Under the pieces are notes generated by a model that was not told where the DNA came from, searched no databases, and was given only the letters and a program-made list of their open reading frames with translations. Shown here piece by piece: positions 36,022-64,000 of a stretch of DNA of 64,000 nt. Every line of letters starts with the position of its first letter. The stretch's first letter is position 1. Source of the DNA: Candidatus Vecturithrix sp. (GTDB lineage Bacteria > Moduliflexota > Moduliflexia > Moduliflexales > Moduliflexaceae); contig JAXGYF010000001.1 of the NCBI GenBank assembly GCA_040772385.1, positions 5,048,545-5,112,544 on the forward strand, given 5' to 3'. The position numbers were made by a program, and so were the translations under genes.

Positions 36022-37008
36022 TTATTTATCGAGCGGACTCTTGACCGCGAGTGCGCCTGTTTGCATGACATGCGTGTAGATCATGGTGGTTGATACCTCT
36101 TCATGTCCGAGTAACTCCTGGACGATATGGATGTCATAGCCGTCTTCCAGCAGATGCGTGGCAAAACTGTGGCGGAACGCATGGCAGGTGACGCGTTTGG
36201 AAAGACCTGCGGCGCGGGCAGCCTGTTTGACAGCGCGCTGGAATCCTTCCCCGCTGGCATGATCGCGATAGGCCTTTCCGGATTGGGGATCGGTCGAAAG
36301 GGTTGCTGAGGGAAATACGTATTGCCAGATCCAGGCGGTTTCGGCGTGAGGATATTTTCGGGCCAGAGCAAAGGGCAAAGGCGTCCTGCCATGGCCAGCT
36401 TTCAGGTCATCTTCATGTAAGCGTTTGACCCTGGCAAGGTGATGCTGCAAAGGTTCTTGTAACACATCCGGCAGCATAGTGCGTCGGTCTTTCATCCCTT
36501 TACCGGAGCGGACGGTGATCTCACGCCGGGCAAAATCGAGGTCCTTGATGCGTAAGCACAGACATTCCATCATACGCAAACCGCTGCCATACAGCACCTG
36601 AGCCATGAGTTGATAGGTGCTTGAAAGCTGGTTGAGCACCCGTTGCACCTCTTCTCTGGTCAAGACGGTCGGAATATAGCTGGACTCTTTGGCTCGCTGA
36701 ACATGAATTTTGCCGGGCAGATCGATATTCAGGACTTTGCGATAGAGCAGAATGAGCGCGCAGAGCGCCTGACGCTGGGTCGTCGCCGTGACATGGCGTT
36801 TTACAGCTAAATGAGTGAGAAAGGCCTCGATCTCTGTTGTCCTCATCGTTGCCGGATGACGATAGCCATGAAAGCGTAGATATTGACGAATCCAGTCGAG
36901 ATACACTTCCTCCGTCCGCGGCGAATAGTGCTTGAAACGTATGGTTTTCCGGACTTGATCCAGCAGTTTGTTCAGTTCATCTGTTGATAACGTTCGTGTG
37001 CGATTCAT
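36022..37008 (-). CDS. intI: Integron integrase (IntI, tyrosine recombinase with the integron-specific additional domain)
   Basis: The IntI-specific insertion [24 protein letters not shown] aligns, by recall, to IntI1 [20 protein letters not shown]. Catalytic motifs [39 protein letters not shown] and a C-terminal AVKSPLD are present. Confidence 0.85.
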
Positions 37009-37215
37009 AAGAAACTACAAGGATTTCTCATAAGAAAAGGATTTCATTCAATCGTTCCAGAATCACAACAACGAATTCGTTCGTTTCTCAATTTGTTGTT
37101 GTGCTGGACAAGATTTCCTGGTGATCAATCGCCAGTCTCACAGCGGAAGGACGCTGAAGCGCCCTCCGGAATTCAGCAACGGGTTTCAACCTGCTTCAGC
37201 TTTGAGATCGGTCAT
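37008..37215. repeat. Inter-intI spacer with a partial family B repeat (37008-37045), hairpin CACAACAACGAATTCGTTCG...GTTGTTGTG, and a family A repeat (37120-37215)
   Basis: Direct sequence comparison with the other copies of families A and B. Confidence 0.6.
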
Positions 37216-37269
37216 TGGGTTGGATAGGCTTCCAGTAAGAAATTCTTGGCATTTCCTGACATCCACCAG

Positions 37270-38253
37270 TCAGCCTCTCCCATCCAGCGGACTTTTTATT
37301 TGTTGTCCGATCTTGTTCAACACATGCGAATAGATCATTGTGGTTTCCACATCCTTATGGCCTAACAGTTCCTGGACTGTTCGGATATCATAGCCGTCTT
37401 CCAGGAGATGCGTGGCAAAGCTGTGGCGCAGGGTACGACAATCGGCCGGTTTTGTGACCCCGGCAATATTTGCTGCTTCCTTGACCGCGCGTTGGAGCGT
37501 TGACTCATCGAGATGATGTCGCCGGGTTATGCCTGAGCGGGGATCCGCAGAGAGCTTACTGGCCGGGAAGACATATTGCCAGTTCCAATTTTTGTTGTCC
37601 GATTGATATTGCTGGGCCAGAATTGGCGGCAGGTAGACCGTGCCGCAGCCTTGCTTCAGATCGTATTCATGCAAAGCTCTGTCATAGCTCAGTTGCAACT
37701 TGATCAGCGGTTCCAGGCTGTGAGGCAGCACGGTGACATGATCTTCGTGTCCCTCGATGGTTCGTACCTGAATCTGGCTCTGCTTGAAATTCAGGTCATT
37801 CACGCGAAGTCGGAGACATTCCAGTACCTGGAGCCCGGCGCCATAGAGGAGGCGAATTGGAAGCTGATAGGCCGGAACGACCGCATTCAGGATGCGGTAC
37901 ACCTCATCTTTGGAGAGGATGTTTGGGAGATGCTGAGGGCATTTAGCGTACAAACGGTTGAGGTGTTCGGCGGTCTCTTCCATCTGAAGCACCTCGCGAT
38001 ACAAAAAACTCAGGGCACTCAGGGCTTGATTTTGGGTTGAGGCAGCCACGCCATCGTTGGCGGCCAGGTGAGTTAGAAAGGTCTTCACTTCTGCCACGCC
38101 CATATTTTGCGGATGCCGCTTCTCATGAAACAGAATAAAGCGTCGAATCCACTGAATGTAGGTCTTTTCGGTCCGTTTGGCGTACTCCAGCGTTTGGAGG
38201 AGATCGCTGACCTGATCAAGCAATTTTTTTTGCTGAGGCGGGTGGAGTGCCAT
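37270..38253 (-). CDS. intI: Integron integrase (second IntI paralog, tandem with the first)
   Basis: Carries the same additional domain ([25 protein letters not shown]) and catalytic region ([37 protein letters not shown]...IKSPLDG). The ORF track extends to 38322; the Met at 38253 gives a typical IntI length. Confidence 0.8.
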
Positions 38254-38473
38254 GGTATTCTTTCCCCCTACATCAAGGTTCTTTAGTAGAATTTCACCAG
38301 GACATGCCTTTTTGCTTGACAAAAATTGAAAAAACCCGAAGATTTTTTTACACCTGCATAACTACAAGAACAGAGGAATACGTAAGAATTTTCAGTGGAG
38401 ATGTTTTTGTCAAGTATTTTCTTCCGGGAAACTCTCTTTTCGTGTATGAACGCGAGGGGGGGGCATCAGAGTG

Positions 38474-38849
38474 TATGAAAACCCGATCGACATTGAAGCG
38501 AGGGCAACGAGGCACGCTCAAACTGGCTCAGCACTATGGCGACCAGTTATTATATGTGCGGTACCGGTATGATCCGGTTCGGAAGAAACGTTTAAAAACC
38601 GTTGAACTGATTATTGAGGAAACTGATTGGGAGCCTGCTGAACAGTTTGCGCCGGATCAGATTGTTGGGGTTCAGGTTGCCATGGAAGAGACCGCTCTTC
38701 AGAAAGCGATTAGAAAGGCCGGAGGGGTCTGGAACCGACGTCGGAAAGTGTGGGAGGTTCGATACGATCGAGTGTGTGAGTTAGATTTGGAAACTCGAAT
38801 GGTTGCCGAAGTTGAAGAGATGTATGCAGCGGTGCAGGGGGTTGAGTAG
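38474..38849 (+). CDS. Hypothetical protein, first ORF downstream of the intI upstream region (possible cassette)
   Basis: An ORF with no recognisable domains. The start at the MKTRSTLKRGQRG Met is inferred, and the track ORF begins earlier at 38247. Confidence 0.3.
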
Positions 38850-38924: not shown

Positions 38925-39100
38925 GAAATGTTTCGTATATACGAAACAAGTTTATTATATGCGAAACATGTTGCGTATATAATAAACCGGAGCACATGGC
39001 TGGCGGAAAAGTTTCGTATATACGTAACTTTTTTTGTGTCGTATATACGTAACAAATTTCGTATATACGTAACATGTTACGTATATACGAAACGGTTTCG
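38925..39100. repeat. Array of ~6 copies of a perfect 16-bp palindrome TTTCGTATATACGAAA (variants GTTACGTATATACGTAAC, TGTCGTATATACGTAAC) within ~180 bp
   Basis: Copies at about 38931, 38962 (degenerate), 39011, 39037, 39056 and 39077, with irregular 5-15-bp spacing, lying immediately left of the IS91-like element end. Confidence 0.8.
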
Positions 39101-39266
39101 GCCGCAAGTACGCAGCCTAATTCCTGTTGAACAAAGCCGCAGGGCGGCAGAAGAGTTTCGTGCTCCTCCCCACCATTTTTCTCTTGCCATGATCTGAACA
39201 GGTGTCATCCTCCTCCATGATGTATTCATCCTGCGTATGAACCTCATTCATCATGGAGGAGATACG

Positions 39267-40133
39267 ATGACCGCTCTGAGACACCGTTTCATTGAAGACC
39301 TGCAATTGCAGGGGAAGTCCGACCGGACGCAACAGGCCTACGTCCGCGCCGTGCGGATGCTGGCCGACCACTTCCACACCCCGCCGGATCAGCTCACCGA
39401 CGAGCAGATTCGGCAGTATTTCCTGTACGTCAAGAACACTCGACACTGGTCGTTTTCGACCATGAAACAGGCCCTGTGCGCTATCAAGACCTTGTATACG
39501 CAGACGCTGCACCGGGACTGGGGCATTCTGGACGTGATTCGTCCGCCGACATCGCAGACGCTGCCCGATGTCCTGACCCACGACGAGGTGCAGCGGCTGC
39601 TTCAGGCGGTGCGTCTGCCGCACTATCGGCTGTGCTTGACCACGATCTACTCGTGCGGATTACGCCTGACCGAAGGCGCCCAACTCCGGGTCACGGACAT
39701 TGACAGTGCCCGGATGCTCGTGCATGTGCGCCACGGGAAAGGGGACAAAGACCGCTATGTGCCGTTACCCCAACGTACCCTGGAGCTGCTGCGCCAGTAT
39801 TGGCTGACGCACCGCCATCCGGTGTGGCTGTTTCCGGCTGGCGGCGCTGGGCCGGTGCAGCGCCAGCCTGCTTCCGCCCCTCTCTCCGTCAGCACGCTGC
39901 AAAAAGCCTGTCGTCTCGCGAAGCAGGAGGCCGGGATCACCAAAACCGTCTCGGTCCACAGTCTGCGCCATGCCTATGCCACCCATCTGCTGGAAGCCGG
40001 CGTGAGCCTGCGCATGATTCAAGCCTATCTCGGACATACCTCTCCCCAGACCACGGCTCGTTACACGCATCTGACCTCCCAGGCGCAGACCAGCGCGGGC
40101 GTCGTCATTGACACCCTGATGCAGGATCTCTAA
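39267..40133 (+). CDS. Tyrosine recombinase (phage-integrase family) encoded upstream of the IS91-family transposase
   Basis: C-terminal catalytic region HSLRHAYATHLLEAGVSLRMIQAYLGHTSPQTTARYTHL. Such upstream recombinase genes occur in a subset of IS91-family members. Confidence 0.8.
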   Translation: MTALRHRFIEDLQLQGKSDRTQQAYVRAVRMLADHFHTPPDQLTDEQIRQYFLYVKNTRHWSFSTMKQALCAIKTLYTQTLHRDWGILDVIRPPTSQTLPDVLTHDEVQRLLQAVRLPHYRLCLTTIYSCGLRLTEGAQLRVTDIDSARMLVHVRHGKGDKDRYVPLPQRTLELLRQYWLTHRHPVWLFPAGGAGPVQRQPASAPLSVSTLQKACRLAKQEAGITKTVSVHSLRHAYATHLLEAGVSLRMIQAYLGHTSPQTTARYTHLTSQAQTSAGVVIDTLMQDL

Positions 40134-40154
40134 GCCCCTCATCGGAGGCCCGAG

Positions 40155-41291
40155 ATGCTGGAATTGGCTGACATCTTCCAGGCCTACGGTCCCGCGTATG
40201 AGGCGAAATACGGCGACCGCATGCCGCCCAGCCATCACGACGCGCTGTGGGACATCGCCCACTGCCGCACGCCCCTGATGGGGGGCGAGGTGTTCTGGTG
40301 TGCCCAGTGCCAGGACTTTGTCTACAGTTATCATTCCTGCGGCAACCGCCATTGTCCCAAATGCGGCGGTGACCGGGCCGACGCCTGGCGCGACGCCCAA
40401 CTCAAGAAGCTGCTCCCCGTGCCGTATTTTCTCGTGACGTTCACTCTGCCCCATTCCCTCAACGCCATCGCCCGTTCCCATCAACACGTGATCGATGACC
40501 TGCTCTTCAAAACGTCCGCGGATGCACTCCACACGCTCGCCTTGAATCCGGAGTGGCTCGGCGGCACGATTGGCATGGTGGGCGTCCTCCACACCTGGGA
40601 TCGGGCGATGGGCTATCACGTGCATGTCCATTATCTTGTGCCGGCCGGGGGGATCGATCCGGGCACCGGGGCCTGGATCCCCTCCCATCCGAAATTTCTC
40701 GTGCCCGCCTCGGCCCTGCGCGAGGTCTTCCGGGCCAAATTTCGCGACGCCCTGTACGCCGCCGATTCAGCCCTCTTCGCCCAGGTCCCGCCGGAGACCT
40801 GGAGCAAACAGTGGGTCGTGCACTGCAAGGCCGTCGGAGACGGACGCACGGCCCTGAAATACCTGGCCCCCTACGTCGCCCGCGTGGCCCTCTCGAATCG
40901 GCGACTGGTGACACTCGATGAGGGACAGGTCACGTTCCGCTATAAGCCCCACACGAGGCCCTGGACGACCATGACGCTCGACGTGATGAGCTTCATGCAG
41001 CGCTTCTTACAACACGTCCTGCCCAAAGGCTTCCAGAAAATCCGGTACACCGGCTTCCTGCACCCCAACGCCCGCACCATGTTCACGGCCCTACAAGCGC
41101 AGCTCGTCGCAGAGGCCGCCTCCGAGCGTCTGCCAGAGGTGCTGGCCGCCACGTTCGGCCTGGAGATCGGCAACGGGACGCCCAACGACGACCCGCCTGA
41201 CGACCCCCCGCGCGGTTGTCCGCACTGCGGTGGTCCGCTGGCCTTCGTCGGTCGCTTCCCTCGCGCCCCCCATCGACGAGGTCCTCCATGA
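40155..41291 (+). CDS. IS91-family transposase (N-terminal Zn-binding domain plus Y2 HUH transposase domain)
   Basis: CxxC...CxxC zinc-binding region (WCAQCQD...CGNRHCPKCG), an HUH-like HVHVHYLVP, and the catalytic Tyr region KYLAPYVARVALSNRRL. Confidence 0.8.
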   Translation: MLELADIFQAYGPAYEAKYGDRMPPSHHDALWDIAHCRTPLMGGEVFWCAQCQDFVYSYHSCGNRHCPKCGGDRADAWRDAQLKKLLPVPYFLVTFTLPHSLNAIARSHQHVIDDLLFKTSADALHTLALNPEWLGGTIGMVGVLHTWDRAMGYHVHVHYLVPAGGIDPGTGAWIPSHPKFLVPASALREVFRAKFRDALYAADSALFAQVPPETWSKQWVVHCKAVGDGRTALKYLAPYVARVALSNRRLVTLDEGQVTFRYKPHTRPWTTMTLDVMSFMQRFLQHVLPKGFQKIRYTGFLHPNARTMFTALQAQLVAEAASERLPEVLAATFGLEIGNGTPNDDPPDDPPRGCPHCGGPLAFVGRFPRAPHRRGPP

Positions 41292-41708
41292 CACGACGAA
41301 TACAACAGCGGACGATTGCCCCACCACGACGGGTTCGGAAAGTCTCCATTTTTCGGCGCACCGTCCCCGTCTGCCCATCGCCCAATGATCGCCTCATCTC
41401 TGTCCGATCACCAGGTGTTCACGGCCTCAACCTTCCATCATGGAGGTACTTGTCGCGAACAACGAAGAGGCATCTTCCCCCATCTGTGCCCCGCACACCG
41501 TCTCCACACTCACGTCATTTCGGAGCAAAATCCAAATAAGACCTTCTGAGAATTTTTTCCTTGACATGATGGGAAATCGCCCCCATATAACGAGGGGTGG
41601 GCTTGTTCAACAGAGATTATGTGCCGGATACTCGTCACATGAATCTTTAATCCGTTAGAACCTCCTTATAATAAGAGAAATTTACTCAATAAATCATAAG
41701 ATTATGTT

Positions 41709-44114
41709 ATGAATATACCACCAAGATTACAACATAGAATTGTTGATTTTCTTATATCTCTTCCGAGTATTCATGATAATAATAGTCAACGATCATTAAT
41801 CTACCAAGCCGGTCTAGATACAGAGTTACAAGGTCAGATTTCATTTGATAAACCAGCTATGCAGTTTGCCCTCTTCCTTGTGTCAACCTTAATAAAATAT
41901 GGTAAACTTAGTGATGGGCGATACGCTATTGAAGCTATTTTGGAGGCAGCAAAGAATTTTGTAGGACAAGATAGGAAAATATATTGTGAAACATTGATAA
42001 ATGAACTGCATGATTATACAATTGAAAAAGCTGATACACCATTATCAGATGATATCCCATTTTTAAAAAAGAGAAATTCTATAGTAGATGCTAAATACGA
42101 TCCCAAATTAGTCACAGAAATAAGGATAACTCCACCTGACTTGACTAATCAACAACAGTTACAAAATACTGGTGATAATTCTTTTGAGATAGATGCTTTT
42201 AAATCAAAGCTCTTAGATTATGAATTGAGTCAGTTAGGCTTACCTTCCTTGATTTTCCATCGGAACAATTTAGAAAGTGAGGGATTGCAGCTTATTCGTG
42301 AGGGTATTCTGCCTGTCATTTTGATTCAAGGTCTCCCTGGCTATGGAAAGACTGTATTGCTTGGTGAACTTGCCAAAAAGATTGGCCATGAATTTCAATA
42401 TACTTTGGTGTTAAATTTTTCTGGTCCAGCTTCTATAGAACCTTCTTATGTCATCGAAGAAATAAATACATTTCTCAATAAACTTGGCCGTGGTATTGAT
42501 ACAGAAATACTCAGAAAACAGAGTACTCAACGCTCTCTTCAAATTCTTATTCCTCAGATGATGGATCTACATCTTCTTCTACTTTTAGACGCAGTAGATG
42601 GTGTACCTCCTGGACAAATTGAAACATTTTTGCAATTCTTAACGGCAACCCCTAAAAATCGACTCATTATGACCGCTCGTTATAGAATCGTAAATAGGTC
42701 GAATGCTCATATATTACATGTGCCTCCATTATCGAACAAAGAAACTGCCGATTTTGTTGAACAGTATACTAAATCAATGAAGATCGGGGTTAATATAAAG
42801 GATTTATTGGAAAAACTCCCCAACAACATTAAAGAACATCCTCAAGCATTAAGCATGATTTTAGCAAATTTAGTTGATATTCCATTTGAACTTTTAGTAA
42901 TGCAAAGCTTCCATGACGATACATTAATCCTTCAACAGTTGGCTAAAAACATCCTTCTTGCTATAGATAAGGAAGTGTTGACTTGTTTAGTATTTATGAT
43001 AGTATTAGATGATCTTGACTTTATGGATACCCTTAAAATTTTAGAAATAAATCCTCCTAAAGGTCTGGTGAATTCTATTAATCTGTTATTGGAAAAGTCT
43101 TTGATTTATCGCCATGAAAATTCTTATCGTGTGCCTTCAATTATACATGAAGGGGTATTAAATTTAATTCCTGATATTGCAGAGACTATTCTAAATCAAA
43201 TAGGTTATATCTTAGAATTAAAAATCAACAGAATGCATTTACAAAGGGTATCAGATCATTTTGATAATCTTATTCCCATAGTTGTTACTATTATTCATCA
43301 TTTTTATCAAATGCGATCTTATGAATGGGTAACTAAACTTGTTATTGATGAATTCTTAGAATTTATCAATATGCGGGGTTTTTGGAAAGAATATTGGCTC
43401 ATTTTACGAATATCTTTTGATGCTGCAAAAAGAATAAACCAATTAAATATCTTTTCCAAAATAGGGTTTAGGATTGCTCGTAAATCTTTACAAATCCACG
43501 ATATTGATACTGGGAGTCAGGTATTAAGTGATGTGGAACGAGTTATTGGTGTTGATGGTAATACAATGGAGCATGCAGAATTTTGGAGTCATAAAGCTCT
43601 TTTCACCGAATTAACTGGATATACGGAGAATGCCAAAGAAGAACTACTGAAAAGTCTCCAAATTCGAGAATCGCTCTATGATGCTGAAGGTATTGCTGTT
43701 ATCCAAAAACTTTTAGGTAATATTCATTTGCGTTTAAAAGAATCAGATATAGCACGTCAATATTATGAGTCAGCATTGATATCTATCAATGAAAATACTT
43801 CCCAATTCAAACATATTATCGAAGTGGAAACGAGTCTCGCTTTGTGTGATCTGATAGATAATAAATTGGAATCGGCTGAATCCACACTTAGAAAAGTTAT
43901 TCAAAATTGTAAGAGTAAAGGCTATTTAGCTGGACTATCAAGAGCTTACTACAATTTGGCTTTAGTACTTGATCGTCAAAAACGTGTTGCTGAAGCTTTT
44001 TATTATGCTGAAATTGCTTCTAAGGAAGCTTTAAAAACAGATAAAGATATTATACTCGGTTCAGGAATACTTATGTGGCGATTAAAAAATTTAAAAGGAA
44101 CCTCTTGTAAATAA
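41709..44114 (+). CDS. STAND-class NTPase (NB-ARC-like P-loop) with an N-terminal alpha-helical adaptor/effector-associated-like domain and C-terminal TPR-like repeats
   Basis: Walker A LIQGLPGYGKTVLLGELAKK, Walker B HLLLLLDAVDG, a helical C-terminal half with TPR-like periodicity, and a 100-aa N-terminal helical domain. AT-rich at ~36% GC. Confidence 0.65.
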   Translation: MNIPPRLQHRIVDFLISLPSIHDNNSQRSLIYQAGLDTELQGQISFDKPAMQFALFLVSTLIKYGKLSDGRYAIEAILEAAKNFVGQDRKIYCETLINELHDYTIEKADTPLSDDIPFLKKRNSIVDAKYDPKLVTEIRITPPDLTNQQQLQNTGDNSFEIDAFKSKLLDYELSQLGLPSLIFHRNNLESEGLQLIREGILPVILIQGLPGYGKTVLLGELAKKIGHEFQYTLVLNFSGPASIEPSYVIEEINTFLNKLGRGIDTEILRKQSTQRSLQILIPQMMDLHLLLLLDAVDGVPPGQIETFLQFLTATPKNRLIMTARYRIVNRSNAHILHVPPLSNKETADFVEQYTKSMKIGVNIKDLLEKLPNNIKEHPQALSMILANLVDIPFELLVMQSFHDDTLILQQLAKNILLAIDKEVLTCLVFMIVLDDLDFMDTLKILEINPPKGLVNSINLLLEKSLIYRHENSYRVPSIIHEGVLNLIPDIAETILNQIGYILELKINRMHLQRVSDHFDNLIPIVVTIIHHFYQMRSYEWVTKLVIDEFLEFINMRGFWKEYWLILRISFDAAKRINQLNIFSKIGFRIARKSLQIHDIDTGSQVLSDVERVIGVDGNTMEHAEFWSHKALFTELTGYTENAKEELLKSLQIRESLYDAEGIAVIQKLLGNIHLRLKESDIARQYYESALISINENTSQFKHIIEVETSLALCDLIDNKLESAESTLRKVIQNCKSKGYLAGLSRAYYNLALVLDRQKRVAEAFYYAEIASKEALKTDKDIILGSGILMWRLKNLKGTSCK

Positions 44115-44123
44115 GGAGTATGT

Positions 44124-44342: not shown

Positions 44343-44449
44343 ACTATAGCATTATTCATTCCCGTTGATCGTAACCCTGACAGGGTTCCAAACCCTGTCA
44401 GGGTTGTAAATGATCAATGTCGATGCATAATGCTATATTACGCTGAGAT

Positions 44450-55060: not shown

Positions 55061-55069
55061 GGAGAACGA

Positions 55070-56087: not shown

Positions 56088-56109
56088 AACTTCTATGAGG
56101 GTGAATACA

Positions 56110-56988
56110 ATGCCAATAATTCCAATACCTTATCATTTCAGTACAACAATCACACAAAAGGATCTATTCATTAACCGGAAAAATGATATTGGTAAAATTG
56201 TTCGAGCATTATCTGGATTTCAGATGAACAACATTTCTGTCATTGGCGAAAGGAAAATAGGAAAATCTTCGTTGCTTTATTATATTTCGAAGTATGAAGA
56301 ATTGCCAGATATAAAGACAGTATTCTTCGATTTTCAAAATAAAGCTGAAGCAAAGATTTTTTATGAACAAATTTGCTCAGAACAAATTACGGATTCTTCA
56401 CAAAAAATAGCGTATTTTCTTGATGAACTTGAATCCGCCTCAAGCTTCGGAGAAACTTTTTTTAAAAAGTTACGCTCTGTTGCCAATAAACCTAATATTG
56501 CGTTAGTTACAGCATCAAGAGCCCCACTATCTACAATTTGTCCCGAGTTTTCTGATGATTCCTCTCCCTTTTATAATATTTTTGTTCCACAAAGTTTAAC
56601 GAATTTTTCTAAGGAGGATACTATCGAACTAATAACAGAAACACCAAAAAGAGTGGGATTGAAACTAAAGCCCGAACAATTTTTTACTCATGACGAAATT
56701 AGATTAATTGTTAAACTCTCAAATTGCCACCCATGGAAGATTCAACTCTACAGCTACTATTTCTTTGAAGCAAAAGTCAACAATATCATCGAAAAAAATG
56801 AAGTTAAGCTGCAAATTAGAGAGGCTTTAAAAATGCAAAGTGGGCAAAAAGAATTGCTGCCCGTCTTAAATTCAGATATTGATATTAGAGAAGTTCTGTC
56901 TACAGATGTTAGCCCTTTGATAAAAAATCTTTTCCAGTTTTTGATCGAAATAGCAACTGAATATGCCACGAAAAAATATATCGGCTAA
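56110..56988 (+). CDS. P-loop ATPase of the Arch_ATPase / AAA-like family
   Basis: FINRKNDIGKIVRAL...VIGERKIGKSSLLYYI (Walker A) and IAYFLDELE (Walker B). The start could be the upstream Met at 56074. Confidence 0.5.
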   Translation: MPIIPIPYHFSTTITQKDLFINRKNDIGKIVRALSGFQMNNISVIGERKIGKSSLLYYISKYEELPDIKTVFFDFQNKAEAKIFYEQICSEQITDSSQKIAYFLDELESASSFGETFFKKLRSVANKPNIALVTASRAPLSTICPEFSDDSSPFYNIFVPQSLTNFSKEDTIELITETPKRVGLKLKPEQFFTHDEIRLIVKLSNCHPWKIQLYSYYFFEAKVNNIIEKNEVKLQIREALKMQSGQKELLPVLNSDIDIREVLSTDVSPLIKNLFQFLIEIATEYATKKYIG

Positions 56989-57022
56989 ACTTCCTTATAT
57001 GTTAAACATATTCAATCCATAA

Positions 57023-57233
57023 TTGTGATGTGAAGGCACATCGTGGAGTGTTTTGGTGAAAGCACTCCATAAAAATTGAAAAAGGATGTACTGCAATCAC
57101 ATCGTAGCCTATTATGATCCTGTTTTTTCGTAATATGGCGTTTTTTCAGATAAGCTGCTGATACGCCGACTCTACGAAGTGCTTGCACGAATGTAGTAAA
57201 TCATCCTAAGCTACGATGTGCCTTCACATCACA
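57023..57233. repeat. MITE-like ~210-bp element bounded by perfect 20-bp terminal inverted repeats GTGATGTGAAGGCACATCGT / ACGATGTGCCTTCACATCAC
   Basis: A perfect 20-bp inverted repeat at 57023-57042 and 57214-57233. A third partial copy, CACATCGTAGC, lies inside. Confidence 0.55.
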
Positions 57234-57254
57234 CATAATAATATTCATATAATT

Positions 57255-58835
57255 ATGATCTCGTTAAATAAAGTACTAGAGCTTCTTGGAATTATCAAGC
57301 AATTGCGTTCATGTGAAACATTAGCGGAAATTGCTAAACAAGAGGATAATTTACAGAAAGCAAGTGTAGGGTTACTATTCAAGAAAGAACTAAATACATT
57401 ACGAAAGATTGTTGCCGATATTAACAAGTTTTTGACAGTCAGCAACAAGATTGAGAAGCATGAGCTATTAGAAGAAATAGTTGCTTTAATCGAAGGAACT
57501 GAATATTATCTAAACCCTAAGTTGGCTGGTGTAATTTATGGACTGATTTATCTTGTAATTTTTGTTGTATTGGCTAGTATAACTATAACTCCATTTCAAG
57601 CGATTATTATCGTTTTTTCATTAGGAGTTTTATCCTATTTTTCGATGGGATTCATTTATACGCTTTACATATTCCCCTTCTATAATAAAAGCTTATCTTT
57701 GATCTTGAAGGAAGAAGAATTACTTATTGCTTCTTTAAATATCAAACACATCCCGAACAATTATATAGTAGGACCTCCTATTCGGCCTGGAAAACATAAT
57801 CTGTTCGTTGGGAGGGAGTTAATTTTTAGGAGGATTTTGGGGTTATTAGAGAATCAATTTGATAAACCATCTATTATTCTACACGGGCAACGAAGAATGG
57901 GCAAAACCTCAATACTATATCACATAGAAGACTATTTCAAAAACTCCTCTACTAAATTTAATATTATCACAATATTGGCCGATATGCAATCTGTTACGCA
58001 AGTCAAAAATGTAGGTGAGTTTCTTTATAATGTCTGTCGAATAATTCGAAATACAGTAAGTAAATATGGAGTAATGGTAGAACTCCCCACTGTTGAATCT
58101 TTTGAAAAACGACCGTTTCTTAGATTTGACGAGTTTTTGGATGAATTAACTAAGCTCATATCTCCGTATAGTTACATCTTTTTAATGTTAGATGAATTCG
58201 AGGAAATAGAGTATAAAATAAAGCAAGGTATCTTTCAAAAAAATCTGCTGGAAGAATTTCGAAGTATAATGCAACATCGAGAAAAGCTGTTCCTAATTTT
58301 TTCAGGTTCACATGCTTTGAATGAGATGTGCAAAGATTTTTGGTCTCCATTTTTCCACATAGCAGAGCCTATTAAAATAGGGTATTTATCTGACGAAGCT
58401 GCAACAAGACTGATAACCACTCCATGGGAGAATTTTCCCATTAGCTATGAGTTAGCCGCAGTGAAGGAAATTATGCGAATTACCGGCAATCAACCGATGC
58501 TAATTCAGGTTATTTGTCGTACACTCATAGATCAAATGAATGAACAGTTGGATTCACAACAAATTCTTCCATATAAGTTTCCAAAACTTAGAATCCAAAA
58601 TGTACATGAGGCGATTGGGCAAAGTCTGACTGGAAGTTATTATTTTGAGGCAATGTGGAACAGTTTGGAGAAATCAGAGCAAATGCTATTAACAAATATG
58701 GCAAGAGGGAAGGAAGAGACATCTCAGAATATTGACGATGATGTAGTACATTCGCTTCAAAAAAAGGAATTGCTGACCAATGATAATAAATACAGAATTC
58801 CCTTGTTGCATGATTGGATTCGAGAGAATAAATAG
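57255..58835 (+). CDS. Membrane-anchored P-loop ATPase (N-terminal TM helices plus Arch_ATPase/AAA-like domain)
   Basis: LFVGRELIFRRILGLLE...ILHGQRRMGKTSILYHI (Walker A), IFLMLDEFEE (Walker B), and TM helices at about residues 90-150. Confidence 0.5.
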   Translation: MISLNKVLELLGIIKQLRSCETLAEIAKQEDNLQKASVGLLFKKELNTLRKIVADINKFLTVSNKIEKHELLEEIVALIEGTEYYLNPKLAGVIYGLIYLVIFVVLASITITPFQAIIIVFSLGVLSYFSMGFIYTLYIFPFYNKSLSLILKEEELLIASLNIKHIPNNYIVGPPIRPGKHNLFVGRELIFRRILGLLENQFDKPSIILHGQRRMGKTSILYHIEDYFKNSSTKFNIITILADMQSVTQVKNVGEFLYNVCRIIRNTVSKYGVMVELPTVESFEKRPFLRFDEFLDELTKLISPYSYIFLMLDEFEEIEYKIKQGIFQKNLLEEFRSIMQHREKLFLIFSGSHALNEMCKDFWSPFFHIAEPIKIGYLSDEAATRLITTPWENFPISYELAAVKEIMRITGNQPMLIQVICRTLIDQMNEQLDSQQILPYKFPKLRIQNVHEAIGQSLTGSYYFEAMWNSLEKSEQMLLTNMARGKEETSQNIDDDVVHSLQKKELLTNDNKYRIPLLHDWIRENK

Positions 58836-58853
58836 ATAATCATAGACTAAGAA

Positions 58854-58995
58854 ATCGAACAAAGCAATGCACGTGACTTCGGCCCGCTGTCGCCAATTTC
58901 CGCATACGCCTCTCGCATAACAGTTTGGTGGCAGCATCAAATGCGTTGCCCGTCGTGAGGAGCGGGCCAAAGCCACGTGATTGCAGGCGTTAGGC
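58854..58995 (+). other. attC-like site of a second type (ATCGAAC ... CACGTGACTTCGGCCCGCT ... AGCGGGCCAAAGCCACGTG ... GCGTTAGGC)
   Basis: It ends in a perfect GTTRRRY core, GTTAGGC, with an 18-bp inverted repeat inside. It starts 19 nt after the stop of the 539-aa gene. Confidence 0.5.
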
Positions 58996-59052
58996 CAGTC
59001 AAATGGACTGTAATGAAATAATCGCAAGAAAAAGAGATGAGCTACGAGTACC

Positions 59053-59430
59053 TTGAAAAGAGACAACAATATCATGCATAAGTACACATCACGCTCAGCA
59101 ATACAACATCGTGCCATTCAGGCATGTCTCTTCTCGCTTTTTCTTGGCGTGGTCACAGGACTTGTCGTGGGCGGTATCATGATGTCGATTGCTTGGGAAC
59201 ATAATCCTCAAGGAGAGTTTCATGGATATGGAACGATTCATTGGGGACATTGGTTCTTACTTGGGTTTTTATGGTTCATTCCCACCTGTGTTGTGGCCAC
59301 CCTGCTGTATGCATGTTTTGCTGTAGGAACTGTGTTTGTTATCTCACGTGGTCGAAGGGGTTTTTCGTACCTGTGTGAGGAATCACAACATCAAGAACAT
59401 GAGAAGAAAAGAAAACTTGACGGGATATAA
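59053..59430 (+). CDS. Small integral membrane protein (cassette ORF)
   Basis: Three hydrophobic helices; GC about 42%. Confidence 0.4.
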   Translation: MKRDNNIMHKYTSRSAIQHRAIQACLFSLFLGVVTGLVVGGIMMSIAWEHNPQGEFHGYGTIHWGHWFLLGFLWFIPTCVVATLLYACFAVGTVFVISRGRRGFSYLCEESQHQEHEKKRKLDGI

Positions 59431-59515
59431 ATGTTGCTATATGCATCGGTTCTTGGGCGATAAAGGCGTAGAACATCCCTAAAAATGGCGGTGTACGCGT
59501 ACACAAAAAGAGGCT

Positions 59516-59875
59516 ATGGCAACCTATAAAGACCAACTTCTCAAGGCATTATCCGAAAGTGGGTGGGAACAACTTGAGGTGAACGAGGAGGGGATCGACT
59601 GGTGGGGCGATGAAATGTGGAAGATGCGATCAATTCGAGAACAGTGGGGGATGGAACTCTATCTCACATTTCTTGTTGATCCTCTCTGGGAGGGACCACG
59701 AAAAAAGAGCCAAGGGATTTGGGCAATTCTGGCAACATCCGAATTCCCGACCGATTGGCGGCAACCTCATGGCAAAATTGCGACACTCTCTATGGCAAAA
59801 CGAAAATTTGGACCAAAACTAAACGCATTTATTCGTGATATTCATGCCTACAGGATTGCACAACAGAGGGTATAA
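59516..59875 (+). CDS. Hypothetical protein (cassette ORF)
   Basis: An ORF with an AGAGG RBS that ends 22 nt before an attC-like site. Confidence 0.4.
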   Translation: MATYKDQLLKALSESGWEQLEVNEEGIDWWGDEMWKMRSIREQWGMELYLTFLVDPLWEGPRKKSQGIWAILATSEFPTDWRQPHGKIATLSMAKRKFGPKLNAFIRDIHAYRIAQQRV

Positions 59876-59897
59876 GCATTTTAGAATCAAAGGGTTG

Positions 59898-60008
59898 GCC
59901 TAACACTCGCTTGCAGGGGACGCACAACAGCGGGCGGGGAAAATGGGTTGCCAGATGTCAAGCGCGGCTGCGCCCGCTGTTGTGCGCCCCTGAAGCGGGG
60001 CGTTCGGC
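59898..60008 (+). other. attC-like site (GCCTAAC ... CGCACAACAGCGGGCGG ... GCGCCCGCTGTTGTGCG ... GGGGCGTTCGGC)
   Basis: A perfect RYYYAAC and a GTTCGGC end, with the same architecture and length as 55512-55621. Confidence 0.6.
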
Positions 60009-60044
60009 GTCTTTTATAGCAACGTCAAATAACATAGGTAACAT

Positions 60045-61094
60045 ATGAGAATATTTGGCATTGACGATGATGGAACATTCAAAGAATATGGAGAAATACC
60101 ATTCCAACAGGAACATACAGAAGCTCTACTTGAGAGTTGGTTAGAAGCCAATCCCCAAAATATTCTTGAAGACGGTAATTTGCTCATTATTGGGCGACAA
60201 GTGACCACAAATTTAGGTAGTGTCATTGATTTGCTCGGTATTGACCGACAAGGCGATCTCGTCGTCCTTGAATTAAAACGGGATCGAACCCCGCGAGAAA
60301 CGCTTGCGCAAGTTTTAGAGTATGCCTCTTTTGTAGAAGAACTCGGAGCTGAACAATTAGAAACCATTCTACGAAACTATCTCAACGACGAATCTATCAG
60401 TTTAGCCGAATACCATCAACAGTATTTCACCATTGCCCCAGAAGAAGCGGTCGTCTTGAACAATGATCAGCGATTAGTCATTGTCGGTCAGCGTATCACC
60501 GAAGACATCCTGCAAACAGCCCTATTTTTACGGAAAAAAGGCCTACGTGTCACCTGTTTAGAATTCTCATTTTTCAAAACAGCCGAAGGGCTGAAACTTC
60601 TCTCATATGATATTGTGGTTGGCAGAGAGACTTACAACGTCAAACAAATTGCGTCAGGAGCCTTACCAATCATCTCACGGGAGGCATTTCTGGCCTCTTT
60701 AGATGATACCGGACGAGAGGTCTTTCAAACGATTTTAACCTATGCTGATGAGGAAGCCTTACCCATTCATTGGGGGAGTAAGGGATTTTCGCTCAATGTT
60801 GATAAGCATGGGATGCATGTGGCTATTTGCTTTGGCTATCCTCCGCATTCCGTCTATAAACAATCATTATATACAGCGCTTGTTGGACGAGGCGGGTTAC
60901 TCAGTAAACTCACTATCCCTGAAGAACAGATCACGCAATTATGGCAAAAAGCGGAATCTACCGGGTTATTTCAACGTGCTGGAAAAGAATTAAAATGTGT
61001 ACTTGACAAAGAGTTCTCACACGAGCAAATCAAGGTCATCGTAGCATGGCTGAAAGATGTTGTCGCAATGGTTCAACAATATGAGACGAAGTGA
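60045..61094 (+). CDS. PD-(D/E)xK nuclease-superfamily protein (NucS/DUF91-like N-terminal domain) with a C-terminal extension
   Basis: GSVIDLLGIDRQGDLVVLELKRDRTPRETLAQVLEYASF contains the D...E-L-K catalytic triad typical of restriction-endonuclease-like folds. Confidence 0.5.
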   Translation: MRIFGIDDDGTFKEYGEIPFQQEHTEALLESWLEANPQNILEDGNLLIIGRQVTTNLGSVIDLLGIDRQGDLVVLELKRDRTPRETLAQVLEYASFVEELGAEQLETILRNYLNDESISLAEYHQQYFTIAPEEAVVLNNDQRLVIVGQRITEDILQTALFLRKKGLRVTCLEFSFFKTAEGLKLLSYDIVVGRETYNVKQIASGALPIISREAFLASLDDTGREVFQTILTYADEEALPIHWGSKGFSLNVDKHGMHVAICFGYPPHSVYKQSLYTALVGRGGLLSKLTIPEEQITQLWQKAESTGLFQRAGKELKCVLDKEFSHEQIKVIVAWLKDVVAMVQQYETK

Positions 61095-61101
61095 TAAGAA
61101 C

Positions 61102-61215
61102 GCCGAACAAGGCGTTTGCAGCGGACTCCGGGAAGGCGGGCGGAAAAATTGGTTGCTCTTTCCCGAAGTTTGGTTGCGCCCGCCTTCCCGAAGCCGCTGA
61201 AACGCGGTCATTAGT
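61102..61215 (+). other. attC-like site (GCCGAAC ... GCGTTTGCAGCGGACTCCGGGAAGGCGGGCGG ... CCGCCCGCCTTCCCGAAGCCGCTGAAACGC), 3' core degenerate or disrupted
   Basis: The 5' half is typical of the family. A 3' GTTCGGC-like core is not found, and the sequence runs into the GC-rich block. Confidence 0.45.
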
Positions 61216-61995
61216 GTGCCAAGCGAAGCTTGGTGTATCTTGCAGGGTGCAAGTCCCTGCCGGGACCCACCCGTAGCGAGTGTTGCGTCATGGGCGGACA
61301 TGAGAGTGGTGATGGTATGCAGGTCTTTGAGGCACGGAAGGGGACACCCGGACACAGACGACTCCTGAAACCTCAAGACCTCTCATGGAACACGCATGAC
61401 GAAGCGTCCACAGCGAATCGTGCAGGCCGTAGGGGAGACCGTGACTCCCTGAACGTTGACATCGCTCCGAACTCGCTCTTTCAGTCGTCGAGGGAGGTCA
61501 CGCAGACCGACGACTCTCTCAAGCATCCGTGAGGAGAGCATGGCCACCGCTGAGGCGACCCGTGAGTGCAAGGATGTGGCGGGCTGGCGGAGTTCACTGG
61601 AAACGGTGGCATGGATGAAGAGATACAGACAAGCACGTGGGAAGCCCCGGAGATTGTCTCACATTCCAACGTGAGAACAGACGTGGAGTCCCCTCACCGG
61701 GAAAGCGTCTGCTCCGAGGTGGCGGATGCCCTCGTCGTACTCCGAGGAGGAGAAAGACCGCTCCATGGGAAAGGGGGGCACGGGAGGACGTAGCCGTACA
61801 GGAAACGTCTGCCGGACATGCAGGGTCGGAGACCAGGAGCCAACCTCACTGCGGGGAAGAGCACATCAGGAAATGAAGTGACTTGTCTGACACGGAAGCG
61901 AGTCCAACCGAGGAGCCTTGTGAGGGAACACTTCACGCAGGGATCTGTGCGGGGGGAGCCGGGTGACCGGCTTTCCTACCGCGTCGCCCTCTTTT
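61216..61995 (+). other. GC-rich (~58%) ~780-bp segment without a credible ORF, wedged after an attC-like site; candidate ORF-less group II (class C-attC-like) intron or other structured RNA / foreign fragment
   Basis: Only short overlapping ORFs on both strands. The 5' end begins GTGTGCC..., and a GNRA-capped hairpin GAGCCGGGUGACCGGCUUUC lies near the 3' end. The composition is discordant with the flanking ~38% GC cassettes. Confidence 0.3.
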
Positions 61996-62038
61996 AGGAT
62001 ATTAACATGGATTTAAGAATCAGGAGATCGAGATAATC

Positions 62039-63457
62039 ATGAGTAAGCTTTTGAGAGTATGGATGTACATCAAAACAAGGAAACTGAGATCGGTTGTCAT
62101 TCTTTTCTTTCTGTGTATTCTTTTCGGCTCGACGTACTTCTCTTTCGAATATGGATACATGTTTCACCCTCCAACAGCCAGGATTCCTCTTGGAAGCCAT
62201 TTTCCAGATCTGCCTCCCGATGAACGGCATCATTACCTTGAGTTTTTCGTTGATCATGACGAGCCCTCTAGGGGGACATTTATGGGATTTTTTCGGCTCA
62301 GTCCGAATTTTCAAAAAGGCTCGGAAGTGATTTTCTATCTCACAGACGGTCAGCAGGAAAAGGTTGGCCTTTCACCATGGGACGAATATTTTGAAGGAAA
62401 ACTTGAAGGGCTCTCTTACGTCACCATCTGCCGACGAGGGCATTATCCGATATTGTTTCCTGAGGTGTTCGATGCCGAGGGAAAGCCAGATTTGAAGGAG
62501 GCACTTCAGCTCTATGGAACATCCCAACAAATTGAAGACATTGAAACTGTGCGCTTGGCGATGCTTGCCAAAGGACTCATTCCTCCTCATGGAAAAATTA
62601 TGCTCTACGGAACCTCTGGAGGAGGGATTCTTATCGAGCAATATCTCGCGAAATATGGGAGAAACGTCTCACGCGCTTTGATCGAAGCCTCATACGGTGG
62701 CGATGTCTTCAGAAAACGAAAAGGCTCATATGACGACTGGCTCCTAGACAGGATGGCAACGCACTCTCCAGAGACATTGGCAAAACTCACTGAAATCGTT
62801 GAGTCGGGAGATGTGGATCGAACACAATTTTCCTTCCTGCTTCAGCGGCCATGTTATTTTTCGTTTCAAGGTGAACAATTCGTTCTGGACCTCATTGACG
62901 ATGTGCACTCCGGAGGAAAATGGGCATACTGGAAAGCGTTATGTCATCCTGGCTACAATTTCACGGTTGTTGATTTCATGATGCAGCTTCCCATTGAATT
63001 GGCCGTGAAGGTCAGATGCTATGAAATACTGGGAGAACGTATTGTTGAATACCGGAAGAGGACGTCGAAGCGAATCAATTTGATGTATGAATGGGCACAG
63101 CATACGATTTCTGATTTCATCACGGCGAGGGAAATGGGAGCAATCAGCGCTGTGAATCTTGGAATTGAGGGGCAGCGACAGGCGTTCACAGGGGAAATTG
63201 TCTTCATGGCCGCCGATGGCGACCACGTGTTCCCAAGTGAAGCCGTTCAATTGTCCGCCATGGAATACCCGACATCCCGTTTCGCCCTTTTTCATGATAC
63301 TCACATCTTTGGAGTGGAGGACAACCAACAGTATTATCGTGATGTCCGCCGAACGTTCTTCGAGCATGGACTACACTCACCTGAATTCGACACGGTGATG
63401 TCTGATGGACGTCAATTGAACAGGGAAGAGAGTCGAACACATGATGGCAGCTCTTAA
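62039..63457 (+). CDS. Alpha/beta-hydrolase-fold protein with N-terminal TM/signal anchor (GxSxG nucleophile elbow GTSGG)
   Basis: IMLYGTSGGGILIEQY and an N-terminal hydrophobic segment VVILFFLCILFGSTYF. Confidence 0.45.
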   Translation: MSKLLRVWMYIKTRKLRSVVILFFLCILFGSTYFSFEYGYMFHPPTARIPLGSHFPDLPPDERHHYLEFFVDHDEPSRGTFMGFFRLSPNFQKGSEVIFYLTDGQQEKVGLSPWDEYFEGKLEGLSYVTICRRGHYPILFPEVFDAEGKPDLKEALQLYGTSQQIEDIETVRLAMLAKGLIPPHGKIMLYGTSGGGILIEQYLAKYGRNVSRALIEASYGGDVFRKRKGSYDDWLLDRMATHSPETLAKLTEIVESGDVDRTQFSFLLQRPCYFSFQGEQFVLDLIDDVHSGGKWAYWKALCHPGYNFTVVDFMMQLPIELAVKVRCYEILGERIVEYRKRTSKRINLMYEWAQHTISDFITAREMGAISAVNLGIEGQRQAFTGEIVFMAADGDHVFPSEAVQLSAMEYPTSRFALFHDTHIFGVEDNQQYYRDVRRTFFEHGLHSPEFDTVMSDGRQLNREESRTHDGSS

Positions 63458-63513
63458 CGACCGTTGGCATGGGCTGGAGTCAGCCTTGTTTTCAACACCG
63501 AGTATGAAAAGTC

Positions 63514-63735
63514 ATGTGTCGTGATAAAACCATTCAGTACGAGATCTTTGAACAAATGGCACACAACTCAACGAAGTTGAATCTCCCTGAAGAAGATGAG
63601 AGGAAAGACTTGATAGACACGAAAAAGAAGAAAGACATGCTCATGGGTGATCCCCAGAGTTATTCCGGGAATCATGGAAAATGGAACGAATTTATCATCA
63701 GTTGGAGGATGTCACTGAAACAAACGTTAAGTTGA
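63514..63735 (+). CDS. Small hypothetical protein (cassette ORF)
   Basis: ORF only. Confidence 0.25.
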   Translation: MCRDKTIQYEIFEQMAHNSTKLNLPEEDERKDLIDTKKKKDMLMGDPQSYSGNHGKWNEFIISWRMSLKQTLS

Positions 63736-63899
63736 ATCGAGAAGCATGGGATCTGTGGTGGAACCAGGAACAACAAGAATGTGATTCAATACCGTAAAAG
63801 CTGGGAACAGGAGAGGATGAACACTTAAATGTTGGTATTTAAAAAGAATTGGGGGCTAACAATGGCTTGGAGGACGATTTCAAGCCCGCTGGCGTCAAT

Positions 63900-63992
63900 T
63901 CACGAAATGAGCATGTCTTAAGGCTCAGAGGAATTTCAGGCGTGGTCGGCGTCGGTCAGGGCGGGCTTCAAACGCCTCAAGCCGGGCGTTCG
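63900..63992 (+). other. Probable attC-like site at the window edge (…CAGGGCGGGCTTCAAACGCCTCAAGCCGGGCGTTCGGCG)
   Basis: Shares the GGGCGTTCGGCG 3' end and the GGGCGGGC motif of the other sites. Its 5' boundary is unclear. Confidence 0.4.
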
Positions 63993-64000
63993 GCGTAAAA

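Follow-up and report, generated by a model that had tools for sequence, protein, structure and literature searches.

A conserved pair of integron integrases with reciprocal residue losses at the head of a cassette array in Candidatus Vecturithrix

INTRODUCTION

The integron reaction is unusual among those of tyrosine recombinases, as one strand of a hairpin is exchanged and two of four identical subunits are kept inactive. In attC recombination a single strand is exchanged, and the monomers bound to the L box are inactive even in ordinary integrons (PMC2727003). In the structure of the Vibrio cholerae integrase VchIntIA with a V. cholerae repeat (VCR), the non-attacking subunits grip the extrahelical base T12'' in cis via P232, H240 and H241, and the attacking subunits touch G20'' in trans via Q145, W157, K209, Y210 and W219 (Larouche and Roy, PMC3053210). 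Inactivation of integrases by mutation is well documented; it is reported to be common in soil and freshwater integrons and to correlate with missing LexA control (PMC3108266). Here we report on a 64,000-nt stretch of DNA (hereafter the window) from the Candidatus (Ca.) Vecturithrix sp. assembly GCA_040772385.1 (contig JAXGYF010000001.1, positions 5,048,545 to 5,112,544). Its right part holds an integron in which the attacking and non-attacking roles may be divided between two neighbouring integrase paralogs, which we named IntI-A and IntI-B. They are accompanied by a conserved small open reading frame (ORF), named orfX, and by an array of palindromes just before the attachment site attI. In the literature that we searched, whose coverage is incomplete, we found neither a conserved pairing of an active with an inactive IntI nor orfX nor Moduliflexus/KSB3 integrons described, and nothing relevant on tandem or inactive IntI paralogs or accessory proteins at attI.

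RESULTS

Two integrase paralogs with reciprocal residue losses

Membership of the IntI family was judged by an IntI-specific profile that includes the additional domain of ~35 aa near the C-terminal catalytic region. Both proteins matched the NCBIfam profile TIGR02249 ('integron integrase') from end to end (scores in Table 1; cutoff 265 bits), whereas the XerC, XerD and XerA profiles scored far under those models' cutoffs. The best solved relative of IntI-B is VchIntIA (PDB 2A3V, E 4e-86), and this alignment is gap-free over residues 188-245, thus running through the IntI-specific insertion without a gap. These searches agree with an earlier sequence-only reading of the window, which had proposed two co-oriented integron-integrase genes on the minus strand, both with the IntI-specific extra domain, and had named clustering with XerC/D in a phylogeny as one finding that would count against it. 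IntI-A and IntI-B share 47% identity. No exact protein is on record for the 350-aa ORF of IntI-B; the true start is the ATG at 38253, as in the 99%-identical protein P0001.

We read the functional residue columns in an alignment of 7 IntI-A, 13 IntI-B and 15 ordinary IntI proteins, using VchIntIA numbering. IntI-A of the window has the complete catalytic set of an IntI (R135, K160, H267, R270, H293 and Y302) and the attacking-subunit contacts (K-R-K-Y-W at positions 145, 157, 209, 210 and 219), while its non-attacking pocket is degraded (H240 to D). IntI-B of the window shows the opposite pattern. It carries R135Q (GLR to GLQ), K160E (GKG to IEG) and H267R (HxxR to RxxR) and retains R270, H293, Y302 and the P232/H240/H241 pocket, so that its catalytic positions read Q-E-R-R-H-Y instead of R-K-H-R-H-Y. 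By descent IntI-B is a member of the IntI family, but it is probably not an active recombinase.

The two clades differ in the same direction. All six catalytic residues are found in 7/7 IntI-A proteins. Catalytic-residue losses are common to every member of the IntI-B clade, in which R135 is present in 2/13, K160 in 8/13, H267 in 0/13, R270 in 13/13, and H293 and Y302 in 12/13 (missing only in the truncated copy of locus L006). The attacking contacts K-R-K-Y-W are likewise kept in 7/7 IntI-A proteins, and the IntI-B counts are K145 5/13, R157 12/13, K209 5/13, Y210 7/13 and W219 13/13. At the non-attacking pocket, IntI-A has P232 in 3/7, H240 in 2/7 and H241 in 7/7, and IntI-B has P-H-H in 13/13. 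The 15 ordinary IntIs are canonical at nearly every scored position, with P-H-H in 14/15.

Judged by these residues, each paralog has lost what only the role of the other would require. This is the pattern expected if IntI-A is a dedicated attacking subunit and IntI-B a dedicated non-attacking subunit of one synapse. Such a division fits the single-strand exchange of attC recombination, and it also fits the local attC sites, which retain an extrahelical T (see below). We favour this mechanism, with moderate confidence, as the best supported one.

The two integrase genes belong to a conserved module

The order intI-A, intI-B, divergent 124-aa orfX, palindrome array and attI recurs in six other loci, one of which is that of Ca. 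Vecturithrix granuli (candidate phylum KSB3). In L001 (= L012, Ca. Vecturithrix), L002 (a 2.7-Mb contig), L003 (a 10.1-Mb contig), L004/L005, L085/L086 and L087, IntI-B is directly followed by an IntI-A ortholog, as in the window. Two further loci are incomplete: IntI-A is degraded in L006, and L084 has a C-terminally shortened IntI-B and an orfX but lacks IntI-A. A database search placed IntI-B in a small clade of proteins with 64-99% identity, among them the protein annotated as integron integrase in Ca. Vecturithrix granuli. None of ~65 other integron-integrase loci, compared at one genome per species, had two adjacent full-length IntI genes.

In a neighbour-joining tree, the A clade and the B clade are each monophyletic and their internal branching is congruent, the window grouping with L001 and L002 grouping with L003; co-inheritance would produce this pattern. 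The ratio of nonsynonymous to synonymous substitutions (dN/dS) is 0.14-0.19 for intI-B, at dS 0.6-1.7, close to the 0.09-0.17 of intI-A, which indicates purifying selection on intI-B rather than decay. The platform of two integrases and orfX is thus very probably a conserved and selected module. The tandem genes had been called unusual in the sequence-only reading; the arrangement is a conserved, co-inherited module and not the curiosity of one genome. It had also been remarked that the first intI gene has no array of its own. Indeed, no attC site lies between or to the left of the intI genes, but the two proteins may be better understood as two subunits serving one array.

IntI-B could alternatively be a regulator, a cleavage-dead protein that binds attI, attC or IntI-A and damps or gates recombination in a dominant-negative or repressor-like manner, stabilising the large array. 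The loss of catalytic residues from a protein that keeps its fold and remains under purifying selection is consistent with this, as are the location of intI-B beside the control region and attI and the common inactivation, correlated with absent LexA control, reported for soil and freshwater integrons (PMC3108266). A regulator would nevertheless leave unexplained why IntI-A has lost exactly the P232/H240 pocket that IntI-B keeps in 13/13 proteins; a pure inhibitor would not free IntI-A from the need for that pocket. We therefore regard a regulatory role as unlikely. Far less probable is an IntI-B without a present function, either a duplicate in decay or a remnant of a second integron: the lost catalytic residues, the lack of an array between the two intI genes and the degraded platforms of L084 and L006 would allow it, but it is largely refuted by ORFs that are intact in all clade members examined, by the dN/dS values, by a tandem order that persists across 7 loci with identities as low as ~65%, by the congruence of the A and B trees, and by the perfect conservation of the P-H-H pocket and the IntI insertion.

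orfX, the palindrome array and attI

The region between the divergent intI-B and orfX genes contains two motifs, TTTTTnCTTGACA and GTCAAGCATTTTC, that are invariant in an alignment of six loci. TTTTTnCTTGACA lies on the strand of orfX and the cassettes, and the complement of GTCAAGCATTTTC has TTGAC on the intI-B strand, so that two -35-like elements stand face to face. We infer that these motifs may be promoters. A separate hairpin, CACAACAAC...GTTGTTGTG (37060-37105, minus strand), occupies the 262-bp spacer between the intI-B stop and the intI-A start, and could be a terminator or attenuator separating the expression of both integrase genes.

The orfX protein has no match in Pfam, NCBIfam or PADLOC. 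Copies beside intI-B are 52-69% identical, and the wider family comprises 2964 clusters at 50% identity (E up to 1e-3). Palindromes of the TTCGTATATACGAA type are enriched well over chance, and the same array is found 3' of orfX in L001-L004 and L096. In the loci of 80 metagenomic orfX homologs, 14-bp palindromes of the form WTC-N8-GAW follow nearly every gene; three or more palindromes lie downstream of the orfX homolog in 37/64 loci and upstream in 2/64. The palindrome sequence varies by lineage. Soil and Methylomirabilota contigs provide ATCTCCATGCAGAT and GGATGCCGGCATCC as examples (metagenomic homologs L007-L011 and L088-L167). Some orfX homologs stand beside a single ordinary IntI, in L096 (13 palindromes, then attI ...AAATTG↓TTAGCA; the arrow marks the crossover), L015, L024 and L033. 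Others stand beside different tyrosine recombinases (L093, L136, L137 and L150), the non-IntI recombinase being ~340 bp downstream.

These observations suggest that the orfX protein probably binds the palindrome array before attI. We conclude that orfX and its palindromes may form a module of a protein and its binding sites, recruited by several integron lineages to a place beside attI, where its role may lie in architecture, directionality or regulation. Two other assignments of the palindromes were rejected. They are not IntI-B sites, as they accompany orfX homologs where no integrase exists, and they are not part of an IS91 end, as they lie outside the repeat common to both IS91 copies of the window.

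The attI crossover of the window, CGGCCGCAAGTACGCAGCCTAATTCCTG↓TT, directly follows the array and is homologous to that of L004, ...GGCGGCAAGTATGCCGTCTATTTCCTG↓TTAGCC. The attI sites of L002 (GTATATCC...GGATATAC-agct-G↓TTAGAAC), L003 (...cgct-G↓TTAGTC) and L004 also stand after a palindrome array.

attC sites and the cassette-boundary rule

A direct-repeat search revealed a repeated element of ~110 bp in the array. We then located the attC sites by a structure-aware scan for AAC...GTT sites with paired arms; its strict anchoring missed S2, S5 and S6, which a relaxed version recovered. Five complete sites were found, all within 46-64 kb, together with S4, in which the 5' arm, the loop and the greater part of the 3' arm remain. 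No match in three shuffled versions of the region reached a score of 10, and the only hairpins detected in the left 36 kb were two of 63 nt that are unrelated to the attC sites. The latter are two copies of an intergenic, near-perfect hairpin, GAAACTACAAGGATTTC...GAAATCCCTGTAGTTTC, placed 105 bp apart (11039-11101 and 11144-11205), which could be a small RNA or an element like repetitive extragenic palindromes (REP). Rfam lacks an attC family; searched at gathering and E-value thresholds, it returned only the sub-threshold group II intron match and, on the hairpins, chance microRNA matches.

The bottom strands, folded as single-stranded DNA, form long imperfect hairpins, with z-scores of -5 to -7.5 for S1-S4 and of -2.6 and -3.5 for S5 and S6. 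In the 3' arm of S1, S3 and S4 two single bases bulge out, a T and a C at a distance of 7 nt. This is the arm bearing the extrahelical bases in canonical attC. S1-S4 form one sequence family with a common loop, and compensatory changes are seen in 11/30 predicted pairs of their stems; S5 and S6 stand apart. The S1-S4 family is also present in Ca. Vecturithrix, where it ends in GTTAGAA. Both the palindromic site proposed to close each gene set and the bottom-strand folding with extrahelical bases (in S1, S3 and S4) are borne out.

Compared with the core consensus GTTRRRY/RYYYAAC, GTT and AAC are invariant, and position 4 is C in GTTCGGC (three sites) and GTTCGAT and A in GTTAGGC and GTTAGAA. 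The C at position 4 is a mild departure. At the extrahelical position, where G is usual, a change to C had only minor effects in VCR experiments (PMC2727003). When the array is cut at every G↓TT, the start of each testable cassette is the exact reverse complement of its own R''. In the window TTAGAA corresponds to TTCTAAC, TTCGAT to ATCGAAC, TTAGGC to GCCTAAC and TTCGGC to GCCGAAC, and the rule also holds for cassettes in L002, L006 and L096. This complementarity is predicted by a circular cassette intermediate recombined at G↓TT, and it is the strongest single argument for a true cassette array. It also corrects the sequence-only reading, which had counted four RYYYAAC...GTTCGGC sites and one GTTAGGC site and had suggested that GTTCGGC may mark a distinct attC lineage. 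The GTTAGGC site is present, but the R' cores are GTTCGGC in three sites and GTTCGAT in one, S4 having none. TTCGGC belongs to the next cassette, and other junctions read GTTAGAA, GTTCGAT and GTTAGGC. The mark of the lineage is the shared loop and stem of S1-S4.

The locus is almost certainly an integron. That it is none, with Xer-like recombinases and repeats that are REP-like or terminator hairpins, might be argued from the R' core GTTCGGC and from the C at the bulge nearest the R box, where G is usual, but it is refuted by the TIGR02249 matches and failing XerC/D models, VchIntIA as best solved relative, hairpins confined to the array with one at each gene-set end, covarying attC stems, the complementarity of cassette starts to R'', and the minor experimental effect of the G to C change (PMC2727003).

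Mobile elements at cassette boundaries

From attI (39127) to the end of the window, where it runs off, the array spans 24.9 kb, of which mobile elements make up ~9.4 kb. They comprise two IS91-family units with an integrase-like gene, two other insertion sequences (ISs) and a group II intron without an ORF, as the earlier suggestion of heavy IS colonisation would have it. The IS91 transposases are of the Y2 HUH type with a zinc-binding N-terminal domain (PF04986 and PF14319; NF033538, 365.8 bits). The recombinases associated with them match TIGR02249 in two pieces only, at 177-186 bits.

The two IS91 units of the window are 85% identical and have the same ends; the copies start with TTGAAC, end with ...AATCCG and show no duplication. 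Unit 1 sits exactly between the G of attI and the TTAGAA start of cassette 1, and in L006 both IS91 units (~5031-7626 and ~1364-3256) are placed precisely after the last G of an attC and before the TT that opens the following cassette. The L006 cassette after the IS91 unit starts with TTAGCG, which pairs with its own R'' CGCTAAC. The left side of unit 2 lies inside a NACHT gene. Rolling-circle insertion of IS91 elements prefers places next to GAAC or CAAG. A classical left end of unit 1 at a GAAC target was considered and rejected, as the TTAGAA of cassette 1 directly follows the right end and both boundaries read G↓TT. This conservative insertion points to site-specific recombination rather than to rolling-circle transposition, and we infer that the units may have entered at G↓TT via their own IntI-like recombinase or that of the integron. 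The unit might carry a canonical attC: the reconstructed junction of an IS91 circle gives a 70-nt hairpin closed at the base by AAC/GTT (z -5.4 to -5.8; -5.8 for unit 1), but the bulges are on the arm opposite to that of a true attC.

The intron adjoins S4, the attC whose R' box is lost. With domain V-VI of the intron, RF00029 gives a full-length match (37.5 bits, E 1.5e-5; gathering score 40), and the ORF listing shows no reverse transcriptase (RT) ORF within the intron. The R' box of S4 could not be rebuilt across the intron, as no GTT-containing joint is possible. Locus L002 has, at 1040-5235 of a related array, two RT-encoding group II introns (RVT_1 and GIIM) on opposite strands. Together with the intron of the window, they indicate that introns recur in this integron lineage.

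Cassette contents and genomic setting

Most cassettes appear to carry candidate defence or addiction genes (Table 1). The NucS-like nuclease has a match (E 5.5e-41) to PDC-S11, a candidate defence family of PADLOC; the STAND NTPases were not recognised by PADLOC, and several cassette proteins had no match. Genes for EAD8-NACHT STAND NTPases are repeatedly found in cassettes near attI, namely in the window (41709-44114), in L001 (3618-6878, Ca. Vecturithrix) and in L084 (97-492). S1 lies inside cassette 1 except for its final six bases (46529-46534), which are part of the cassette that follows. Between the right end of IS91 unit 2 and hicB, ~250 bp of A-rich low-complexity DNA (54814-55060) consist of AAGC/AAAC/AAGG repeats.

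To the left of intI-A is a bacterial microcompartment (BMC) locus with 3 BMC-domain and 4 EutN genes (30458-34519) and genes for an aldehyde dehydrogenase, RpiB and DeoC, in keeping with the reported position of the intI pair directly right of such a locus. This core metabolic flank, an array of at least 24.9 kb and an attC family shared with Ca. Vecturithrix characterise a sedentary chromosomal integron. A protein identical to that of orfX is on record from an NCBI contig of 7.29 Mb, which supports a chromosomal location. The integrase models, the folded attC sites, the stem covariation and the cassette-boundary rule thus substantiate the sedentary chromosomal integron of the sequence-only reading, several details of which need revision. 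An array of at least 26 kb had been given where we measured 24.9 kb. Not everything to the right is on the plus strand, as the IS1634-family transposase is on the minus strand. The right side had been described as AT-rich with ~36-42% GC; cassette DNA is at 32-38% GC and the inserted mobile elements are at 53-64%. The orfX gene, the palindrome array, attI, the group II intron and the placement of IS91 units at the crossover had all been missed. Elsewhere in the window, a palindrome scan showed a cluster of alternating GC-rich palindromes, CGCGCTTGAGCGCG and CCGCCTGAAGGCGG, at 23537-23695.

Table 1. Positions of the integron features in the window
Feature	Position	Strand	Description
intI-A	36022-37008	minus	Integron integrase, 328 aa; TIGR02249 439.8 bits, residue comparison; orthologs adjoin IntI-B in L001-L004, L085 and L087
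intI-B	37270-38253	minus	Integron-integrase paralog, 327 aa; TIGR02249 405.6 bits, 2A3V alignment, clade alignment, dN/dS
Divergent control region	38254-38474		Two invariant motifs
orfX	38475-38849	plus	124-aa protein, uncharacterised family; conserved between intI-B and attI
Palindrome array	38928-39098		~7 palindromes, core TTCGTATATACGAA, 20-25 bp spacing; candidate orfX-protein binding sites
attI	39099-39128	plus	Crossover between G39126 and T39127
IS91-family unit 1	39127-41654	plus	Tyrosine recombinase (39237-40133) without IntI insertion, Y2 transposase (40155-41291)
Cassette 1	41655-46528	plus	EAD8-NACHT-TPR STAND NTPase (41709-44114), 72-aa ORF, 651-aa AMP-binding/Pol-beta nucleotidyltransferase-like protein (44450-46405); starts TTAGAA
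attC S1	46423-46534	plus	Complete; R' GTTCGGC
Cassette 2 remnant	46529-47540	plus	Cold-shock-domain protein (46565-47389); starts TTCGGC; cut by IS insertions
ISKra4-like transposase	47557-49088	plus	Degenerate, split over three ORFs
IS1634-family transposase	49293-51050	minus	Two ORFs
NACHT NTPase gene fragment	51142-52275	plus	Truncated by IS91 unit 2
IS91-family unit 2	52276-54809	plus	Recombinase (52377-53282), Y2 transposase (53310-54446); ends G↓TTGAAC ... AATCCG↓TTAG
HicB/HicA toxin-antitoxin cassette	54810-55615	plus	Genes 55070-55497, preceded by A-rich low-complexity DNA; attC S2
attC S2	55512-55621	plus	Complete; R' GTTCGAT
nSTAND2 cassette	55616-58989	plus	102-aa ORF, two nSTAND2-like NTPases (56074-56988, 57216-58835); starts TTCGAT; attC S6
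attC S6	58854-58995	plus	Complete; R' GTTAGGC
Two-small-ORF cassette	58990-60002	plus	ORFs 59053-59430 and 59516-59875; starts TTAGGC; attC S3
attC S3	59898-60008	plus	Complete; R' GTTCGGC
NucS-like nuclease cassette	60003-61213	plus	Gene 60045-61094; starts TTCGGC; attC S4 without R' box
attC S4	61102-61213	plus	R' box lost
Group II intron, ORF-less	61214-61984	plus	Starts GTGTG; domain V-VI 61911-61984; cassette orientation
Cassette after intron	61985-63988	plus	472-aa protein of unknown family (62039-63457), 73-aa ORF; attC S5; 5' boundary obscured by intron
attC S5	63854-63994	plus	Complete; R' GTTCGGC
Further cassette start	63989-64000	plus	TTCGGC..., continues past window end

DISCUSSION

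The mechanism that we propose builds on what was observed directly, namely the anatomy of the locus, the conservation of the module, the residue patterns, the purifying selection on intI-B, the cassette-boundary rule and the covariation of the attC stems. In the sedentary chromosomal integron of a KSB3/Modulibacteria-like bacterium, IntI-type recombination at G↓TT would exchange cassettes between attI and attC sites folded as bottom-strand hairpins, and the integrase function would be divided between two co-inherited paralogs. IntI-A would act as the attacking, cleaving subunit on the R box, and IntI-B as the dedicated non-attacking subunit on the L box, with its Pro-His-His pocket gripping the extrahelical T. 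orfX would be transcribed toward the array from the conserved promoter-like element, and its protein would probably bind the palindromes just before attI. The full combination, with an obligate two-protein integrase (A cleaving at the R box, B dead at the L box), orfX on the palindromes shaping attI, and an IS91 element with its own recombinase entering at G↓TT like a cassette, has in our judgement about an even chance of being correct.

Several observations weigh against this picture. The residue counts are not phylogenetically independent. In the B clade, P0007 and P0009 retain R135 and K160, most members keep K160 and Tyr302, and some B proteins might still cleave. A change of H267 to Arg alone need not abolish catalysis, as type IB topoisomerases have a basic residue there. 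In the A clade, L085 and L087 retain H240, and IntI-A might still fill both roles. The platform also exists with IntI-B and orfX but no IntI-A (L084) and with a degraded IntI-A (L006). Finally, orfX occurs with a single ordinary IntI (L096) and mostly without a nearby recombinase, so that it is not exclusive to the platform of two integrases and has a putative role at attI. Read from the residue patterns, an A-B heteromer nonetheless seems to us somewhat more plausible than its absence.

If the proposal is true, the asymmetry between attacking and non-attacking subunits, which ordinary IntI homotetramers reach by conformation, would be hard-wired here. It would amount to a natural genetic dissection of that asymmetry, showing which residues serve each role and what enforces directionality and the choice of strand, and it might offer a controllable two-component tool for cassette capture. 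The locus also indicates that integron platforms can hold further conserved parts, such as orfX and the palindromes, that standard annotation of intI and attC overlooks. A function found here for orfX would transfer widely, to a family of ~3000 clusters without annotation. The IS91 units with a recombinase at G↓TT suggest that transposons may have a new way of colonising integrons.

Among known systems, the V. cholerae superintegron (VchIntIA and VCR) shares with this locus an IntI with the specific insertion, an attI followed by co-oriented AT-rich cassettes, and toxin-antitoxin and defence-type cassettes. The homogeneous, lineage-specific attC family (S1-S4 and Ca. Vecturithrix) is comparable to the VCRs, both forming bottom-strand hairpins with extrahelical bases. 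Unlike the superintegron with its one integrase protein, the present locus has two reciprocally degenerated paralogs, orfX and a palindrome array between intI and attI, large multi-gene cassettes (up to 4.9 kb), and extrahelical T and C instead of T and G.

Repeats beside the crossover are also known from the class 1 attI1, with its IntI1-binding DR1 and DR2, and from the Xis/IHF arrays of phage att sites; the repeats here are only candidates for protein binding. In contrast to those systems, they are 6-13 palindromes of fourteen bp that co-occur with a separate small protein family even where there is no integrase, so that they are probably not IntI sites. A similarity to Xis or IHF was not found. 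Like the group IIC-attC introns, the intron of the window is lodged at an attC of a cassette array. Those introns insert in the bottom strand, opposite to the cassettes, and encode an RT (PMC3001079), whereas this one has no RT ORF, has its domain V-VI on the plus (cassette) strand, and adjoins an attC without an R' box. The IS91-family units, in which a tyrosine recombinase gene stands before the transposase gene, have a parallel in an annotated pair on the Herpetosiphon aurantiacus plasmid CP000876, where a phage-integrase-family gene precedes a Y2 HUH transposase gene. Unlike classical IS91, four of five copies (unit 1, both L006 units and the right end of unit 2) lie directly against cassette boundaries, exactly at G↓TT and with no duplication, which is the behaviour of a cassette or a site-specific integrating element and not that of rolling-circle insertion.

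In ordinary integrons one protein plays both roles in a homotetramer. The XerC/XerD heterotetramer at dif offers a parallel to the division proposed here, as two paralogous tyrosine recombinases would occupy different half-sites of one synapse. Both are active in XerC/XerD, each exchanging one strand pair, whereas here one paralog keeps the catalytic set. A single catalytic paralog would fit the single strand exchange of attC recombination.

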